Of a stretch of DNA of 52,600 nucleotides, positions 2,359 through 33,360 are shown piece by piece. Position numbers and translations under genes: made by a program. The notes under the pieces are model-generated. The model was not told where the DNA came from, did no database searches, and saw only the letters and a program-made list of their open reading frames with translations. This stretch comes from an uncultured Candidatus Saccharibacteria bacterium. Its GTDB lineage: Bacteria > Patescibacteriota > Minisyncoccia > Minisyncoccales > JAGGXC01. The DNA lies in the NCBI GenBank assembly GCA_964470765.1, contig CAYYDV010000001.1, positions 1 through 52,600 of the forward strand, in the 5' to 3' direction. The stretch's first letter is position 1; the number at the start of each line of letters is the position of its first letter.

Positions 2359-3447
2359 TTAACTCCTGATTTTTATACTTTGTAAAATGCCTAAACCTAT
2401 AAAAATGGCAATTAAACCTGATCCTCCATAGCTTATCAGAGGTAAGGGAATTCCAATAATCGGTAAAATCCCTAAATTCATTCCAATATGAATAAAAAAT
2501 TGAGAAATTAAAAGAGTAGCCATACCTGAAGCAAAAAGTCGAGAAAAATTGGTTTTTGAGAAAACAGCAATTTTAATTATCCGCCAAATAAAAACAGAGA
2601 ATAAAAATAATAAAACCAAAACTCCTAACATTCCTGTTTCTTCAGCTAAACTTGAAAAAATAAAATCAGTTTGAGGTTCAGGCAAAAAACCATACTGGGT
2701 CTGGGAACCTCGGCCTAATCCTTTTCCTAAAATTCCTCCCGACCCTATAGCAATTCTCGCTTGCTCCTGCGACCAACTAATTCCTAAGGGTTCAAGTTGA
2801 GGGTTAATAAAACCTAAGATTCTCTGCTTTTGATAATCTTTTAATAAAAAAGACCAAGCCAAAATTGAGATTAAAAACATAACCAAACAAAGAATCAGAA
2901 AGTGCCGAACTTTGATTCCGGAAATAATCAAGACAACAACCCACAGAGAAATTAAAATTAGGACTGAGCCTAAATCCGGTTGGAAAAAAATTAAGAGACA
3001 AGGAATTAGAATATAAATTCCGGAAAGAATAATATGTCTTAATCTATACATCTCAACGTGTCTCATTGAGAAGTACTTAGCCAATAAAATTATTAAAACG
3101 ATTTTGGTAAACTCTATCGGGTCAATAGAAATAGGTCCTAATTTATACCAGCTTTTCACTCCCCTAATTTCAGGGACGAAAAAGAGACCGGCTAAACCCA
3201 AAAGGCACAGAAAATAAAGAATCAAGATCAAATAGGAATTATCTTTCAAAATTCTTAAATCAAAAAAGCTGATTAAAAACATTAAAAAGAAACCTACTCC
3301 CAAAAAAACAATTTGCTTTCTGAAATTAAAAAAATTCCCTCTATCAAGGGAACTACTGTAAATCGACAGAAGACCTATGCTCACTAACAAGATGGCAGTA
3401 ATAATAAGAATCCAGTCAAATTTTTTCAAACGACTTAAAAACAGCAT
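2359..3447 (-). CDS. SEDS-family peptidoglycan polymerase (FtsW/RodA)
   Basis: 362 aa and polytopic. Contains the motif GSQTQYGFLPEPQTDFIFSSLAEETG and a C-terminal PLPLISYGGS, both typical of FtsW/RodA/SpoVE. Confidence 0.9.
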   Translation of the reverse strand: MLFLSRLKKFDWILIITAILLVSIGLLSIYSSSLDRGNFFNFRKQIVFLGVGFFLMFLISFFDLRILKDNSYLILILYFLCLLGLAGLFFVPEIRGVKSWYKLGPISIDPIEFTKIVLIILLAKYFSMRHVEMYRLRHIILSGIYILIPCLLIFFQPDLGSVLILISLWVVVLIISGIKVRHFLILCLVMFLISILAWSFLLKDYQKQRILGFINPQLEPLGISWSQEQARIAIGSGGILGKGLGRGSQTQYGFLPEPQTDFIFSSLAEETGMLGVLVLLFLFSVFIWRIIKIAVFSKTNFSRLFASGMATLLISQFFIHIGMNLGILPIIGIPLPLISYGGSGLIAIFIGLGILQSIKIRS

Positions 3448-3524: not shown

Positions 3525-3578
3525 GTTTAAAATCCGGCTTTAAACACATTGCCAACTGTTTAAAACCCGGCTTTAAAC
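3525..3578 (+). repeat. Two tandem copies of the 21-bp near-palindromic element (GTTTAAAATCCGGCTTTAAAC and GTTTAAAACCCGGCTTTAAAC)
   Basis: Copies at 3525-3545 and 3558-3578, just downstream of the ligA stop. They create the spurious ORF 3377..3598 (LKSGFKH...LKPGFKH). Confidence 0.85.
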
Positions 3579-3583
3579 ATTCT

Positions 3584-5671
3584 TTATGGTTTCATTAATT
3601 TAAGAAATTCTGGTTCTTTTATTATTTTCACTCCTAGTTTTTGGGCTTTCTCGAATTTTGAACCCGGTTTCTCGCCAGCTACCAAAAAATCAGTCTCTTT
3701 GGAAACTGAGGTAGCCGGATCTCCTCCCAGGAGCCTTATTCTTTTCTCAGCTTCGGCCCGAGTCGAAGTTCGCAAGGTACCAGTTAAGACAAAGATTTTT
3801 CCGGTTAGTTTCTGGCCAAATTTTTCCGGCGCCAAAATTTTAATTCCGGCTTTAAAAAGGTTCTCAATCAGGCCAAGATTCTTTTTTGACTGAAACCATT
3901 TATAGATACTTGCCGAAACTTGGGGTCCAATATCAGGAATTGCTTCTAATTCTTCTTGAGAGGCTTTTTTAAGTTTATCAATTGTTCCGAAATATTGAGC
4001 TAAATCAATAGCGGTCTCTTCTCCTGTATGACGAATCCCTAAGCTATAGATAAATTGAGCTAAGGGTATTTTTTTACTTTTCTCAATGGTTGATACTAAG
4101 TTTTGGGCTGATTTTTCAGCAAATCTTTCTAAAGGAATTAAATCTCCCTCAGTTAGAGTAAATACATCGGATGGCCGGGATATCAAATTTTCATCAATTA
4201 ATTGATTAATAATTCTGGGTCCTAATCCTTCAATATCAAAAGCTTTTTTGGAAACAAAATAACGTAGAAATTCCCTTTTCCGGGCCGGGCAGTTGTTATT
4301 AGGACAACGCCGAACTGCTTCTCCTTCAGGTCTTAATAATTTTGTTCCACAGACTGAACAGGTTCTAGGTATTTCAAATTTTTTCTCTTTTCCTGTTCTT
4401 AATTCCGGTAAAACTTTAACTACTGCCGGAATTACATCTCCAGCCCTTTCAATGATTACCGTGTCGCCAATTTTCACTCCTAATCTTTTTATCTGATCTT
4501 CATTATGTAAAGTAGCTCGAGTAATAGTAGTTCCCCCTACCTGGACTGGCTTTAAAAAAGCTATAGGAGTTATGGCGCCGGTTCTCCCGACCTGAACTTT
4601 AATATCTAAAATTCTAGTTGTAGCCTGCTGGGGAGAAAATTTTAAAGCTCTGACTGCCCGGGGACTTTTTCCGGCTACTCCTAATTTTTCAAAAAGAAAA
4701 TTATCATCTACTCTGGCTACTATTCCATCAATCTGGAAAGGAAAGGTATCTCTTTCTTTAGCAATCTTCCGCCAGAAATCTCCTATTTCTTTTAAATCTT
4801 GACACTCTTTACCCTTATCTGTTTTGAAACCTAAAGCTGGTAATAGCTGGTGCTCTTGATAATGCCTGGTTTGGCCAACATCAGTAATAAAATCGTAAGC
4901 TAAAAATTTCAAGGGCCGGGAAGCAGCTAGTTTTGAATCCAACTGTCTGATAGAACCAGCCGCTAAATTCCTGGGGTTAGCATAAGGAGTTTCTCCTTTT
5001 TTCTTTCTTTCTTTATTAAACCTCTCAAAAGCCTTTTTCTCCATATAGACCTCTCCCCGAATCTCAACTCTTCCTTTCTTAATTAGTTTCTTTAAGCTTT
5101 CTTCAATATGTTTAAAGCCGGGTTTTAAACGTTTGTGGAAATGAAGTCTTAAGGGAATACTTTCAATAGTTTTTAAATTCTGAGTAACCTCCTCCCCCAC
5201 TCTTCCATTTCCTCTGGTAGCGCCTTGAATAAAAAGACCATTTTCATAAACTAAAGTGATAGCAAAACCGTCAATTTTTAATTCGCAAAAGTAAGAATCT
5301 GCCTTTGGCAGAACCTTGATTCCTCGCTTTGCTCGAAAATAATTAATTTTTGCTGAAGGAGCTAATCTTTTTAAATAATCCTCCCAATTCTGAAGCTCTT
5401 CTTCAGAAAAAATGTCTTCAATAGAAAGCATAGGAATTCTATGTTCTACTTTCTTAAATTCCTTTAAAGGTTTACCTTCTACTCTTTGGGTCGGAGAATC
5501 GGGAGTAATAAATTCCGGATGCTTTTGTTCCAGCTGATAAAGTTCGTGTTTTAAAGAATCTAAAGCTCCCGGAGAAATCTCCTCTTTATCTAAAACATGA
5601 TATAAATAACGGTGATATCTAATCACCTTTTTTAATTTTTCAATCCGTCGTTTGACTTCTTTTTTGCCCAT
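3584..5671 (-). CDS. ligA: NAD-dependent DNA ligase
   Basis: 695 aa. Has the adenylation motif CELKIDG, the Zn finger CSVCGTKLLRPEGEAVRRCPNNNC, HhH repeats and a C-terminal BRCT-like GKIFVLTGTL. Confidence 0.97.
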   Translation of the reverse strand: MGKKEVKRRIEKLKKVIRYHRYLYHVLDKEEISPGALDSLKHELYQLEQKHPEFITPDSPTQRVEGKPLKEFKKVEHRIPMLSIEDIFSEEELQNWEDYLKRLAPSAKINYFRAKRGIKVLPKADSYFCELKIDGFAITLVYENGLFIQGATRGNGRVGEEVTQNLKTIESIPLRLHFHKRLKPGFKHIEESLKKLIKKGRVEIRGEVYMEKKAFERFNKERKKKGETPYANPRNLAAGSIRQLDSKLAASRPLKFLAYDFITDVGQTRHYQEHQLLPALGFKTDKGKECQDLKEIGDFWRKIAKERDTFPFQIDGIVARVDDNFLFEKLGVAGKSPRAVRALKFSPQQATTRILDIKVQVGRTGAITPIAFLKPVQVGGTTITRATLHNEDQIKRLGVKIGDTVIIERAGDVIPAVVKVLPELRTGKEKKFEIPRTCSVCGTKLLRPEGEAVRRCPNNNCPARKREFLRYFVSKKAFDIEGLGPRIINQLIDENLISRPSDVFTLTEGDLIPLERFAEKSAQNLVSTIEKSKKIPLAQFIYSLGIRHTGEETAIDLAQYFGTIDKLKKASQEELEAIPDIGPQVSASIYKWFQSKKNLGLIENLFKAGIKILAPEKFGQKLTGKIFVLTGTLRTSTRAEAEKRIRLLGGDPATSVSKETDFLVAGEKPGSKFEKAQKLGVKIIKEPEFLKLMKP
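5110..5130 (-). repeat. Copy of the 21-bp near-palindromic element inside ligA, encoding LKPGFKH
   Basis: The plus strand reads GTTTAAAGCCGGGTTTTAAAC. The ligA mRNA reads aaa cgt tta aaa ccc ggc ttt aaa cat = KRLKPGFKH. Confidence 0.85.
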
Positions 5672-10592: not shown

Positions 10593-10641
10593 AATGACTT
10601 TTGGAATTTAACAAAGAATGGGTCTCTGTGGAACTGGTGCT

Positions 10642-10662
10642 GTTTAAAACCCGGCTTTAAAC
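10642..10662 (+). repeat. Intergenic copy of the 21-bp near-palindromic element
   Basis: GTTTAAAACCCGGCTTTAAAC, flanked by the direct repeats GGGTCTCTGT at 10620-10629 and 10685-10694. Confidence 0.85.
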
Positions 10663-10701
10663 ACTTTTCAATATCGTAGAGAACGGGTCTCTGTTAAATT
10701 T

Positions 10702-14350: not shown

Positions 14351-14412
14351 CAAGAATAAGAACCTCCCTCACTTCACTCGGCAGAACCTTGATTCTCGCT
14401 TTGCTCGAATTA
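14351..14412 (+). repeat. AGAACC-rich dispersed intergenic repeat, locus 2
   Basis: Sequence caagaatAAGAACCtccctcacttcactcggcAGAACCttgattctcgctttgctcgaatt. Confidence 0.7.
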
Positions 14413-26482: not shown

Positions 26483-27664
26483 ATGACTATCCTGGCTATT
26501 GAAACTTCTTGCGATGATACCTGTATTGCTTTAGTCAAAGCTCAAGGAAAGAAGCGAGTTTCTTTTGATGTTTTATCGAACATTGTCTCTTCTCAAGTCG
26601 AAATCCATAAAAAATGGGGAGGGGTCTACCCTACCCTGGCTAAAAGAGAACACCAGAAGAACTTAATTCCTGTTTTAAAAAAATCTCTAAAAAAAGCTGA
26701 AGAATTTAAGGCTTCAAATAGTAAATGTCAAATTTCAAATTTACAATCTAAAATCCTGAAAAAAATATTAGAAAGAGAACCTGAATTATTAAATAATTTC
26801 TTAAAAGTTATTCCTAAAATTAAAAAACCGAAAATTGATGCTATTACTATAACTGTTGGACCAGGCCTGGAGCCCTGTTTATGGGTAGGAATAAATTTTG
26901 CTAAAGCTTTAGCTTATTTCTGGAACTTATCTTTAATCCCCATTAATCATATTGAAGCCCATATTTATGCCAACTGTTTAAAACCCGACTTTAAACAGTT
27001 TAGTTTTCCAGCAATTTGTCTAATTGTTTCTGGCGGCCATACTCAGCTTATTTTAATGAAAAATCATGGCCAATATAAAGTCGTTGGCGAAACCAGAGAT
27101 GATGCTGCCGGTGAATGCTTAGACAAAATTGCCCGAATCTTAGGATTAGGATATCCCGGTGGACCGGCCATTGCCAGACGAGCTTGGCAATGGAAATCCC
27201 AAGCCCCAATAGTCAATTACCAAATTAAGTTGCCACGACCAATGATTTATAATAAAGATTATGATTTCAGTTTCTCCGGATTAAAAACAGCTGTTCTCTA
27301 TGATTTTAAAAAACGGAGTTCTAAAGTTAAAAAGAACAAAAACTACATTAGTCAAATGTGCTTTGAAAGCCAGCAAGCTATTATCGATGTCTCAATTTAT
27401 AAGACTCTTAAAACAGCTAAAACTTGGCAAGCAAAAACTATTATTTTAGGCGGAGGAGTAACAGCCAATCAAGAATTAAGAAAACAAATAAGTAGAAAAA
27501 TCCAAAAATCTTTACCTAATACTTTTTTCTTAATCCCCCGACTTCAATACTGTACTGATAATGCAGCTATGGTAGCTGTAGCTTCTTACTTTCATTATTT
27601 AAAAGGAGAAATAAGAAAATGGCAAGAAGTCAAAGCCGAAGCTAATCTGAAATTAGGTAAATAA
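26483..27664 (+). CDS. tsaD: tRNA N6-adenosine threonylcarbamoyltransferase
   Basis: Contains ILAIETSCDDT, HIEAH, SGGHTQL and GGGVTAN. At 393 aa it is longer than usual and has inserted segments. Confidence 0.93.
   Translation: MTILAIETSCDDTCIALVKAQGKKRVSFDVLSNIVSSQVEIHKKWGGVYPTLAKREHQKNLIPVLKKSLKKAEEFKASNSKCQISNLQSKILKKILEREPELLNNFLKVIPKIKKPKIDAITITVGPGLEPCLWVGINFAKALAYFWNLSLIPINHIEAHIYANCLKPDFKQFSFPAICLIVSGGHTQLILMKNHGQYKVVGETRDDAAGECLDKIARILGLGYPGGPAIARRAWQWKSQAPIVNYQIKLPRPMIYNKDYDFSFSGLKTAVLYDFKKRSSKVKKNKNYISQMCFESQQAIIDVSIYKTLKTAKTWQAKTIILGGGVTANQELRKQISRKIQKSLPNTFFLIPRLQYCTDNAAMVAVASYFHYLKGEIRKWQEVKAEANLKLGK
26976..26996 (+). repeat. Copy of the 21-bp near-palindromic element inside tsaD, encoding LKPDFKQ
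   Basis: GTTTAAAACCCGACTTTAAAC. It shares the left flank tgccaactg with the 3558 copy. Confidence 0.8.
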
Positions 27665-27761
27665 TAAGAACCTGCCTTTGGCAGAACCTTGAATGCCTTC
27701 GGCATATTCTAAGAACCTTTCGCTTCGCTCAAGAACCTTGATTCTCCTCTTGCTCGAAATA
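27663..27761 (+). repeat. AGAACC-rich dispersed intergenic repeat, locus 4 (four AGAACC words plus mini-hairpins)
   Basis: AGAACC starts at 27667, 27683, 27712 and 27732. Includes the mini-hairpins tgcc-ttt-ggca and atgcc-ttcg... gcat. Confidence 0.75.
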
Positions 27762-30909: not shown

Positions 30910-33360
30910 TTAGACAAAAGTTGCAGAAGCAACTTTATCACCTTCTTCTAATCTCATAATTCTTATTCCTTGAGTTGCTCTGCTTAATTTTGAGATTGAA
31001 GAAATTTTAGTTCTTATAACCTGACCTTTTTGAGATATGACAATCAAGTCTTCTTCAGTAGTTAGGATTTTTGAGCCTACTAAATCCCCAGTTTTTTTAG
31101 TTGGTTGAGCAGTTTTAATGCCAGTTCCTCCTCTCTTTTGTAAACGATATTCTTTGGAATCTGTTCTCTTTCCGTAGCCATTCTCAGTAACAACTAATAA
31201 ATAGCTTTTTTGCTTAGGGTCTATTACGTCCATACCAACTACCTCATCTCCTTTCTTCAATCTAATCCCTCTTATTCCTGAAGCCGGTCTTCCCATTGGT
31301 CTAATATCTTTTTCTTTGAATCTGATGGATTGCCCTTTCTTAGTTACTAAAATTAATTGGTCATCTTCTCTAATTCTAGAAACCTTTCTTAAAAGGTCTC
31401 CTTTTTTCAGTCCTATAGCAATTAATCCTGACCTCCGAACGTTCTTAAAATCTTCAAGAAGAGTCTTCTTTATTATACCATCTTTGGTAACCATTACTAA
31501 ATATTTAAACTGGGCTTCTTTTTCTTTCTTCCAAGAAATGATGGATAGAACTTTTTCTTCAGGAGAAACTTCTAAGAAATTAGCTAAACCCCGGCCCTTA
31601 GCTACTCGGCTTTCTTTGGGAATTTCATAAACTGGAGTCTGAAAGGCCTTTCCAGAATCAGTAAAGAAAAGTAGGGAATCATGAGTGTTGCACAAAAGGA
31701 AGTTTTCAACAATGTCTTCTTCTAAAGTCTTCATTCCTAAAATCCCTTTACCTCCCCTTCTCTGAATTTTATAGGCCTGAGGACTGGTTCTTTTAATATA
31801 GCCGCCTTTTGTTAAGGTAACTATAGTTGGCTCTTGAGGAATGAGGTCTTTTTCGGGAATCTCTCCTATTTTCTGAACAAAAACCTTAGTCCTTCTTTCG
31901 TCACCATATTTTTCCTTTAACTCCAGAAGTTCTTTTTTAACAACTCCTATTATTCTTTTAGGACTCTTTAAAATAGCTGAAAGCTCTTTAATTTCTTTTT
32001 TCTTCTGGGCCAGCTCTTGAGTAATCTTTTCTCTTTCTAATCTAGCTAAAGCTGAGAGCTTTGTTTCTAAAATAGCTTCAGCTTGAAGGACAGTTAATTT
32101 GAATTTACTAATAAGGTTCTTCTGAGCCATTTCCCGAGTTTTAGAAGCCTTAATTGTTTTAATAACCTGGTCAATTTTAGATAAACATTTATCTAATCCT
32201 TCTAAAATATGGGCTCGGGCTTTAGCTTTTTCCAAGTCAAACCTGGTTCTTCTTTTGATTACTTCTTTCCGGTGAACCAGGAAATAATTGAGAATATCAG
32301 CCAGAGATAAAACCCGGGGCTGAATTCCATCCACCAAGGAAACCATATTTAAATAAAAGGTTTTCTGAAGGTCAGTAAATTTGTAGAGCCGGTTTAAGAT
32401 TTTCTGGGAAAAAGCTCCTCGCTGGAGATCAATGACAATTCTCAAACCTTCTCTGTCTGATTCATCTCTGATATCTTTTATCTTCTCAATCTTTTTCTGT
32501 TGAACCAAATTAGCTAAATGTTCTACTAGAGTAGATTTCTGGACCTGAAAAGGAATTTCAGTAATCAAAATCTGAGTTCTTTCTTTTTGCCGAACTACCT
32601 CTGTTTTTCCTCTCATCACTATTGGCCCTTTGCCTTGAGAATAAGTAGTGATTATCTCCTTTTGATTATAGATTTCGCCTCGAGTTGGAAAATCTGGCCC
32701 TTTAATAAATTTGAAAAGGTCCTCGGTGTCAGCCTTAGGATTGTCCAACAGGTGAATTGAAGCATCTATTACTTCGGAAAGATTATGAGGAGGAATGTTA
32801 GTAGCCATTCCTACGGCAATTCCTAAAGAGCCATTTAATAAAAGTTGGGGCAATGGCGAAGGTAAAACAGTAGGTTCTTTTCGAGTTCCATCATAGTTAT
32901 CAATAAAATCAACGGTCTCTTTTTCAATATCTCTTAGTGATTCTTCGCCAATTCTTGAAAGCTTGGCCTCACTATATCTCATCGCACTCGCGGAATCCCC
33001 GTCAATTGAGCCAAAGTTCCCTTGACCTTTAATCAAAGGATATCTTAAAGAAAAATCTTGAGCCATCCGGACCAAAGAATCATAGACAGCTTGATCGCCG
33101 TGGGGATGATATTTTCCAAGGCACTCCCCAACGACTGTTGCTGATTTTCTAAACTTTGCCTCAGGTCTTAGCCCCATCTGGTGCATGGCATAAAGAATTC
33201 GGCGATGGACAGGCTTGAGACCATCTCGAACATCAGGTAATGCCCGGGCAACAATCACTGACATAGCATAATCAATGTAGCTTTCCTTCATCTCCTCAGT
33301 AATCTCTCGAGTTTTGAAATATCCTGTTTCCTTATTTGGTTTTTGAGAATCTTTAGCCAT
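30910..33360 (-). CDS. gyrA: DNA gyrase subunit A
   Basis: 816 aa. Contains [12 protein letters not shown], the active-site region [10 protein letters not shown] and C-terminal beta-pinwheel repeats. Confidence 0.97.

Follow-up and report, generated by a model that had tools for sequence, protein, structure and literature searches.

Dispersed 21-bp hairpin repeats in a Patescibacteria genome and their probable link to REP-type copying by Y1 transposases

Hairpin repeats of the REP type typically occur in more than 100 copies. RAYT transposase genes are flanked by inverted REPs (PMC2817692), and REPs sit downstream of open reading frames (ORFs), with some inside replication and repair genes (PMC3733652). 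REPtrons are deletable, and numerous strains of E. coli have lost the transposase unit (PMC3733652). REP-RAYT systems are known chiefly from Proteobacteria, and GTAG-type REPs are on record from that phylum, Cyanobacteria, Chloroflexi and the PVC group (PMC3733652). A REP that lies within 15 nt of a stop codon in E. coli reportedly causes ribosome stalling and reduced expression of the gene before it (Liang et al. 2015, as cited in PMC12306157). A full-text literature search returned no paper linking RAYT or REPIN with Patescibacteria, in line with the remark of an initial annotation of this DNA that it was aware of no such family for this kind of genome, and Patescibacteria are unmentioned in the paper on a REP survey tool. 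Here we report a small family of hairpin repeats in a draft genome (G000; 712,611 bases in 86 contigs, 86.7% complete, with ~13% unassembled) that adjoins Candidatus Nealsonbacteria (Patescibacteria/CPR) by its LigA, TsaD and MurD homologues. The window, meaning the whole stretch of 52,600 nucleotides that was analysed, is contig C1 of this assembly. With a probability of about three in four, we read the element as a REP-type hairpin repeat copied by a hairpin-specific Y1 HUH transposase (RAYT-like, IS200/IS605 superfamily).

All five 21-bp copies that the initial annotation had listed are present in the window: a tandem pair at 3525-3545 and 3558-3578 (12 nt apart), an inverted copy at 5110-5130, and single copies at 10642-10662 and 26976-26996. 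Searching the window with that annotation's own pattern at up to 2 mismatches gave 10 strand-matches, equal to five sites, far above the 0.03 expected by chance, and none of 100 shuffled sequences equalled the observed count. The family is also more than a local duplication, the other outcome that annotation had considered: the pattern search found four copies on other contigs (C15:8454, C15:11313, C24:8176 and C65:1515), for a genome-wide total of nine copies on four contigs, with no match to the reversed-pattern control. When a fuzzy search of the genome tolerated up to 4 errors, the sole addition was a dubious match with an indel on C51, and the family is therefore discrete and not a graded motif. 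Seven of the nine copies are identical 21-mers, and five of the nine lie inside 24 kb; the window, with these five, makes up 7% of the genome. An A follows every copy and a T precedes seven of them, giving a 23-nt palindrome, TGTTTAAAGCCGGGTTTTAAACA. The unit thus measures 21-23 nt, with an A/T-rich stem of 7-8 bp, (T)GTTTAAA...TTTAAAC(A), around a conserved asymmetric heptamer, ACCCG(A/G)C. On the plus strand, 3558..3578 reads as the consensus, GTTTAAAACCCGGCTTTAAAC, 3525..3545 has the variant ATCCGGC, and 26976..26996 has the variant CCCGAC; 10642..10662 is likewise on the plus strand and 5110..5130 on the minus strand. The sub-families of shared flanks described in the initial annotation also hold, with 30 nt shared at 96.7% by the 3558 and 26976 copies (including TGCCAACT) and 32 nt at 93.8% by the 3525 and 5110 copies; the 10642 and C15:8454 copies have 47 nt in common at 97.9%. 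No copy matches Rfam. The exact motif gave one unrelated match in a collection of species-representative genomes, none in viral contigs, and 12 in metagenome contigs, among which only L005, L006 and L011 look CPR-like.

Three of the nine copies lie inside genes, all in frame, and six are intergenic. The inverted copy occupies codons 181-188 (RLKPGFKH, the sole open frame) of ligA, which encodes an NAD-dependent DNA ligase (3584..5671, minus strand) and lies upstream of the tandem pair. The 26976 copy occupies codons 165-172 (CLKPDFKQ) of tsaD (26483..27664, plus strand), and the C65 copy occupies codons 254-261 of murD. All three are read as xGT TTA AAA CCC GGC TTT AAA CAx, or (C/R)LKP(G/D)FK(Q/H), which is the only TAA-free frame in either orientation; every in-gene copy uses this single stop-free frame, including six in other genomes of the order and four more in metagenomic tsaD genes. 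Among the intergenic copies, four of six lie 1-9 nt past a clear stop codon: the tandem pair starts 5 nt past the ligA stop, in the gap between ligA and an ftsW/rodA-family gene (2359..3447, minus strand), C15:11313 is 1 nt past the rpsI stop, and C24:8176 is 9 nt past the stop of the gene gap and is followed by a separate classical terminator. C15:8454 is 5 nt past the stop of an unsupported ORF, and the 10642 copy, between an S26 signal peptidase gene and an 844-aa DUF2341 gene, is 39 nt past the signal-peptidase stop.

Other hairpins were also seen. A second, more abundant hairpin-repeat family, TTCGAGC(R)AAGCGAG-AATCAAGGTTCTGCC(R)AAGGCAGGTTCTTA, occurs at 5282-5329 (inside ligA), 14380-14409 and 27665-27692, the last beginning directly past the tsaD stop, and at more than 25 places on other contigs. 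Its copy in ligA is a genuine in-frame 48-nt insertion, FRAKRGIKVLPKADSY, that is missing from all 16 aligned homologues. Hairpins of the form ACAGAG(R)CCCGT(Y)CTCTGT (ACAGAGACCCGTTCTCT) flank the 10642 copy at 10616-10632 and 10681-10697, recur beside the C15:8454 copy (C15:8487), and are also found at C23:4496; a third small repeat is one possible reading of them, a terminator-like unit another.

The two arms of the element differ at a single position (A versus G), as first annotated, and the predicted RNA hairpin has -6.4 kcal/mol in the G-U orientation and -3.2 kcal/mol in the A-C orientation. The tandem pair indeed stands directly after the ligA stop in the G-U orientation for the minus-strand transcript, and five of the six intergenic copies have the better-folding orientation. 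The argument from orientation that had been built on this asymmetry holds as an energy difference in G000 but does not generalise, orientation relative to transcription being mixed across genomes; the variant of genome G028 barely folds (-1.7 to -2.6 kcal/mol). On the minus-strand RNA the two tandem copies are predicted to pair with each other (-24.3 kcal/mol, z = -4.0, with 0 of 200 shuffles as stable), and a U-rich run, GUUUGGGUUUUUG, comes after the fold. This mutual pairing together with the U-rich run makes it plausible that the pair forms a long 3' stem-loop on the ligA mRNA. A terminator scan found no terminator at 3525-3578.

To place the family, 301 genomes of the order were searched at up to 2 mismatches to GTTTAAAACCCGRCWTTAAAC, with the frame GTTTAA-N-(A/G)CCCG(A/G)C-N-TTAAAC. 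The motif was found in 18 of these genomes (the reversed-pattern control gave 4 single matches), at 1-9 copies per genome, and in none of the six genomes of G000's own family. Variants are uniform inside one genome and different between genomes, and several genomes have a repeated dominant variant; there are five identical copies of GTTTAACACCCGACGTTAAAC in G175, seven sites of GTTTAAAGCCCGGC(T/G)TTAAAC in G232, six copies each in G153 and G028, and three in G162. Copies do not sit at orthologous places in different genomes. An alignment of 25 distinct variants, compared with 500 shuffles, has changes on both sides in three of the seven stem pairs (A-T, C-G and G-C). The covariation score, the percentage of cells paired and the double-change cells were each reached by 0-1 of the 500 shuffles, and the count of pairs with double changes by 24 of 500; the innermost stem pair is mismatched in many variants. 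In the loop, C10 and G12 are invariant, and C9, C11 and C14 nearly so.

Copies in the other genomes, where gene calls are simple ORF calls, are found at tight junctions within operons, pointing with or against transcription, 1-7 nt past a stop, overlapping the stop, or 0-18 nt before a start. The overlapping arrangement belongs to G028, where the upstream gene ends on a stop codon supplied by the motif and the next start codon lies 2-7 nt farther on. At one such locus (L016, contig C12 of G028), ORFs 2-1519 and 1529-1978 carry the same Ig_Rha78A_N domain with only the motif between them, its TAA ending the first ORF, and the motif may have split a single gene there.

The link to a transposase comes from relatives. 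In G175, copies at 977(+) and 1752(-) of contig C16 bracket a 245-aa ORF, with a third copy at 838, and ligA directly follows this unit. These inverted copies around a Y1 transposase gene form a REP-RAYT arrangement, which favours the reading as a miniature repeat of the REP/RPE type proposed in the initial annotation. The 245-aa product matches Pfam Y1_Tnp (IS200-like transposase) at 23.7 bits and its G232 homologue at 28.2 bits, against a cut-off of 23. The sole NCBIfam match of the two proteins is NF047646, REP-associated tyrosine transposase, at 17.5 and 23.3 bits; the homologues (17-23 bits) stay far from the RAYT equivalog cut-off of 80 bits. The alignment of eight homologues (50-60% identity) shows no variation at the two His of the HUH motif or at the Tyr in RY(I/V)...N.LD. 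Searched against solved structures, the profile of these eight proteins had its best match, a weak one (E = 0.04), in ISDra2 TnpA, with the HUH and Tyr motifs aligned; phmmer against the PDB gave no match for the transposase, and its AlphaFold model was unusable (pLDDT 45).

Homologues of this transposase were detected in 156 of the 301 genomes of the order, with at least 9 matches listed for one genome. Each close homologue is flanked by matching palindromes of its own, several of them in the GTTTAA..TTAAAC frame: GTTTAAACTTCCACTTTAAAC in G110, and GTTTAAGGT(T/A)(C/G)AACCTTAAAC in G032 and G019. Upstream of the G232 transposase gene stands GTTTGAAGCCGGGCTTCAAAC, which matches the dispersed copies of that genome at 19 of 21 positions and differs in one compensatory pair; the downstream flank is a more diverged copy. 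The palindrome in G075 has different arms around the same ACCCGAC centre, and some distant paralogues have the same layout with unrelated palindromes. G028, G153, G048 and G199 contain the motif, and their distant transposase homologues are not flanked by it.

No transposase was found in G000 itself. A six-frame Pfam search gave no Y1_Tnp match, tblastn with the G175 protein gave none, and the unfiltered eight-homologue profile gave none across the full set of 5,384 open frames with 40 or more residues (best E = 0.25). Homologues were also missing from six family relatives of G000. Orphan copies do occur, since G162, a single 661-kb contig at 95% completeness, has its three copies and no transposase homologue. 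The copies in G000 are thus either orphans, or their transposase gene sits in the unassembled ~13%.

Individual copies differ in apparent age. The ligA loop has the same length in G000 and in 16 LigA homologues (69-82% identity), and the copy there adds no residues. At this site the sister contig L021, whose LigA is ~80% identical, carries AGTTTAAAACCCGGCTTTAAGCAT, a 20/21 match with one synonymous change; the match and the unchanged loop length indicate that the ligA copy is old and added no peptide. L021 has no copy in its ligA-ftsW gap or elsewhere in its 18 kb. The tsaD copy, both as the peptide CLKPDFKQ and as the DNA motif, also occurs in two metagenomic relatives, L030 (20/21) and L037 (33 identical nt), and is missing from the sister contig L031 and several close relatives, which have YLDS-KE instead and are two residues shorter. 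The tsaD gene of L037 has a second, inverted copy in another loop with the same CCAACT flank, and that of L035 holds the second-loop copy while its first has decayed. To judge from these alignments, the ligA and tsaD copies are older, inherited and shared with sister lineages, and not recent insertions; with little or no change in protein length, they do not look like simple insertions. The murD copy brings six residues that are missing from all 43 aligned homologues (~62-75% identical) and is thus a true +18-nt insertion unique to G000. A ligA segment as progenitor of all copies was ruled out, G028 having the motif and a LigA with a short loop that lacks it.

The flanks of the tandem pair are informative about its sources. 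The 3525 copy bears the ligA flank specific to G000 (AAAC before the motif, versus AAAA in the sister), and the 3558 copy bears TGCCAACT, the native Ala-Asn codons of tsaD, which are conserved as GCC AAC in TsaD proteins without the motif. With coding flanks from ligA and tsaD, these two look like recent copies of the coding ones, taken along with 5-8 nt of flank. G000 and L037 agree in 11 of 11 codons at the tsaD copy, compared with a codon identity of 0.69 in the background (p ~0.02), which is weak evidence for a nucleotide-level constraint on this copy. The same tsaD loop in G162 contains a copy that matches the main G000 variant 21/21, with TsaD proteins only 52% identical. Inheritance alone hardly accounts for such a match, which suggests either that the motif inserted more than once at a preferred site or that it is maintained as nucleotide sequence. 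The LigA loop that bears the motif in G000 is occupied in G019 by a different in-frame palindrome, TAGTGGAGGACAGGCCTCCACTA (L026, contig C12, ~31534-31556), with a second copy elsewhere in G019 that has compensatory changes; hairpin repeats seem to land in this LigA loop repeatedly.

The adjacency of ligA and ftsW is conserved in every relative that has both genes inside the fetched locus. In relatives without the repeats the gap measures 4-105 nt; it measures 137 nt in G000 (ligA-REP-REP-ftsW), 844 nt in G032 (ligA-REP-RAYT-REP-ftsW, with the transposase gene on the opposite strand) and 975 nt in G019 (ligA-REP,REP-RAYT-REP-ftsW). The tandem pair in G000 thus occupies the site where two other families keep a transposase unit, and may be a remnant left after loss of the transposase gene. 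The chance of this is no better than even, since the two copies are direct and not inverted and their flanks point to tsaD and ligA as sources. In a metagenomic relative (L033, 12164-12700), the same gap is occupied by an ORF of 178 aa that lies between AT-rich tandem repeats (ATTAGAAATTAGATAAA...) and has PaaX_M and weak Cas2-like matches. Elsewhere, L030, which shares the tsaD copy, has at 2621-3256 a 211-aa ORF with a faint LAGLIDADG_3 match between its hsp20 and pilin genes; neither the window nor the sister contig has this ORF there.

Under the preferred reading as a REP-type repeat, a Y1 HUH transposase would act on the hairpin in single-stranded DNA and copy the palindrome. The copies in G000 would be products of such an enzyme, whose gene has since disappeared or sits in the unassembled ~13%, or which acted in trans, and new copies would have taken 5-8 nt of flank from their sources in tsaD and ligA. 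Selection would then have left only copies in the stop-free frame within surface loops, or in short gaps just past stops. Any present function would be secondary: the tandem pair probably forms a long 3' stem-loop on the ligA mRNA, and copies within 15 nt past a stop, a spacing clearly seen in four of the six intergenic ones, might, by analogy with the REPs of E. coli, which are far stronger hairpins than the G000 motif, dampen translation of the gene before them. A rather unlikely extension is that the order keeps a vertically inherited, domesticated REP-RAYT system with its home in the ligA-ftsW gap, whose hairpins serve the host at the nucleotide level even after loss of the transposase. 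In this extension the hairpins take up the same surface loops of essential genes again and again: the tsaD loop is occupied in at least two families, and the ligA loop holds different palindromes in different families; if the system is domesticated, its hairpins might tune expression of genome-maintenance genes or mark DNA.

Spread without any transposase, through template switching or short-patch gene conversion carrying patches of ~30 nt from the ligA and tsaD copies into nearby gaps, would account for the native ligA and tsaD coding sequence beside the 3525 and 3558 copies, for the clustering of five of the nine copies inside 24 kb in a genome where no transposase was found, and for the ligA replacement without length change, which conversion fits better than insertion. 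We hold it to be unlikely, because it leaves unexplained a near-identical 21-mer at unrelated sites in distant families, where it brackets transposase genes, and because 21 nt of identity is at best about what RecA-dependent conversion usually requires. It is quite unlikely that the motif is chiefly an RNA element under selection, working as a 3'-end stabiliser, as a terminator or as a hairpin for processing, and that its association with transposases is incidental. The position of four of the six intergenic copies 1-9 nt past a clear stop, and of a fifth 5 nt past the stop of the unsupported ORF, agrees with such a role, as do similar stop spacing in other genomes, the stable fold of the tandem pair with its U-rich run, and the better-folding orientation of five of the six; however, one copy alone makes a weak hairpin (-6.4 kcal/mol), the fold of the G028 variant is marginal, copies in different genomes point either way relative to transcription, the C24 copy is followed by a separate classical terminator, the terminator scan found none at the pair, and both the in-gene copies and the conserved loop sequence are ill-suited to a simple terminator.

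A binding site for a dimeric DNA-binding protein, whether a parS-like centromere or organising site, a recombinase core or a regulon operator, would match the 7-7-7 architecture with inverted arms and the few, clustered, highly conserved copies, some of them in genes as for parS, but we consider it very improbable. G000 has no ParB N-terminal domain (PF02195), dnaA lies on another contig (C8), positions are not orthologous between genomes, and the neighbouring genes have no functional theme; the uniform variant of each genome fits copying rather than co-evolving sites, and recombination between sites in essential genes would be lethal. The absence of PF02195 and the location of dnaA led us to reject a parS or chromosome-organising site. 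Readings as a CRISPR array, a dif/Xer or lox-like core, a transcription factor operator or a -1 frameshift site (U UUA AAA) were set aside from sequence on account of spacing, copy number, positions in essential genes, or an immediate -1 stop.

If the preferred reading as a REP-type repeat is right, a REP-RAYT architecture occurs in about half of the genomes of a Patescibacteria order, which is unexpected for genomes of ~0.5-1 Mb that are believed to shed repeats. The known range of REP-RAYT systems, studied as long-lived and possibly beneficial mobile DNA, would be extended to palindromes that are tiny, untagged and A/T-rich, that sit at a conserved locus, and that recur inside essential genes. 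The system would offer a minimal biochemical version, a 21-nt hairpin with a predicted transposase of 245 aa. Annotation of these genomes is affected too: stop codons come from the motif, genes are split or made longer by it, and assemblies probably break at it.

Several described repeat classes resemble the element in part. Mycobacterial MIRU intercistronic repeats occupy tight operon junctions like the G028 motif, which supplies the upstream stop, but they are tandem units of 46-101 bp that are not known to be hairpins or to be linked to a transposase. Rickettsia palindromic elements (RPEs) are in-frame palindromes tolerated in housekeeping genes, where they add surface peptide, as the murD copy does with its six residues. 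RPEs are, however, ~100-150 bp long and CGTC-tagged, with no dedicated transposase known, and unlike them two of the three in-gene copies in G000 add little or no length (two residues in tsaD relative to its nearest relatives and none in ligA). With the IS200/IS605 elements IS608 and ISDra2, the system would share the transposase superfamily (HUH and Tyr) and recognition of a hairpin in single-stranded DNA; those elements have unlike left-end and right-end hairpins, a TnpA of ~140 aa and often TnpB, and move whole, whereas in the motif family the same palindrome flanks the transposase gene and also stands alone. From the REP/REPIN-RAYT systems of E. coli (REP-yafM), Pseudomonas and Stenotrophomonas (PMC2817692, PMC3116915, PMC3733652) the family differs in having no GT(A/G)G or CGTC head (no GTAG lies beside any of the nine G000 copies, whose flanks are T...A), an A/T-rich stem, only 1-9 copies per genome and an ultra-small Patescibacteria host; its homologues of ~245 aa are distant from curated RAYTs, reach at least 9 paralogues in a genome and have no member in G000. 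It is like them in being a short imperfect palindrome with a non-complementary middle that forms an above-chance dispersed family, mostly extragenic just past ORFs and sometimes inside genes, among them genes for replication and repair. Its variants are uniform within genomes and its stems compensated, some genomes have repeats without a transposase, and in related genomes inverted copies enclose the gene of a predicted Y1-family transposase with HUH and catalytic Tyr motifs, as in described REP-RAYT systems.
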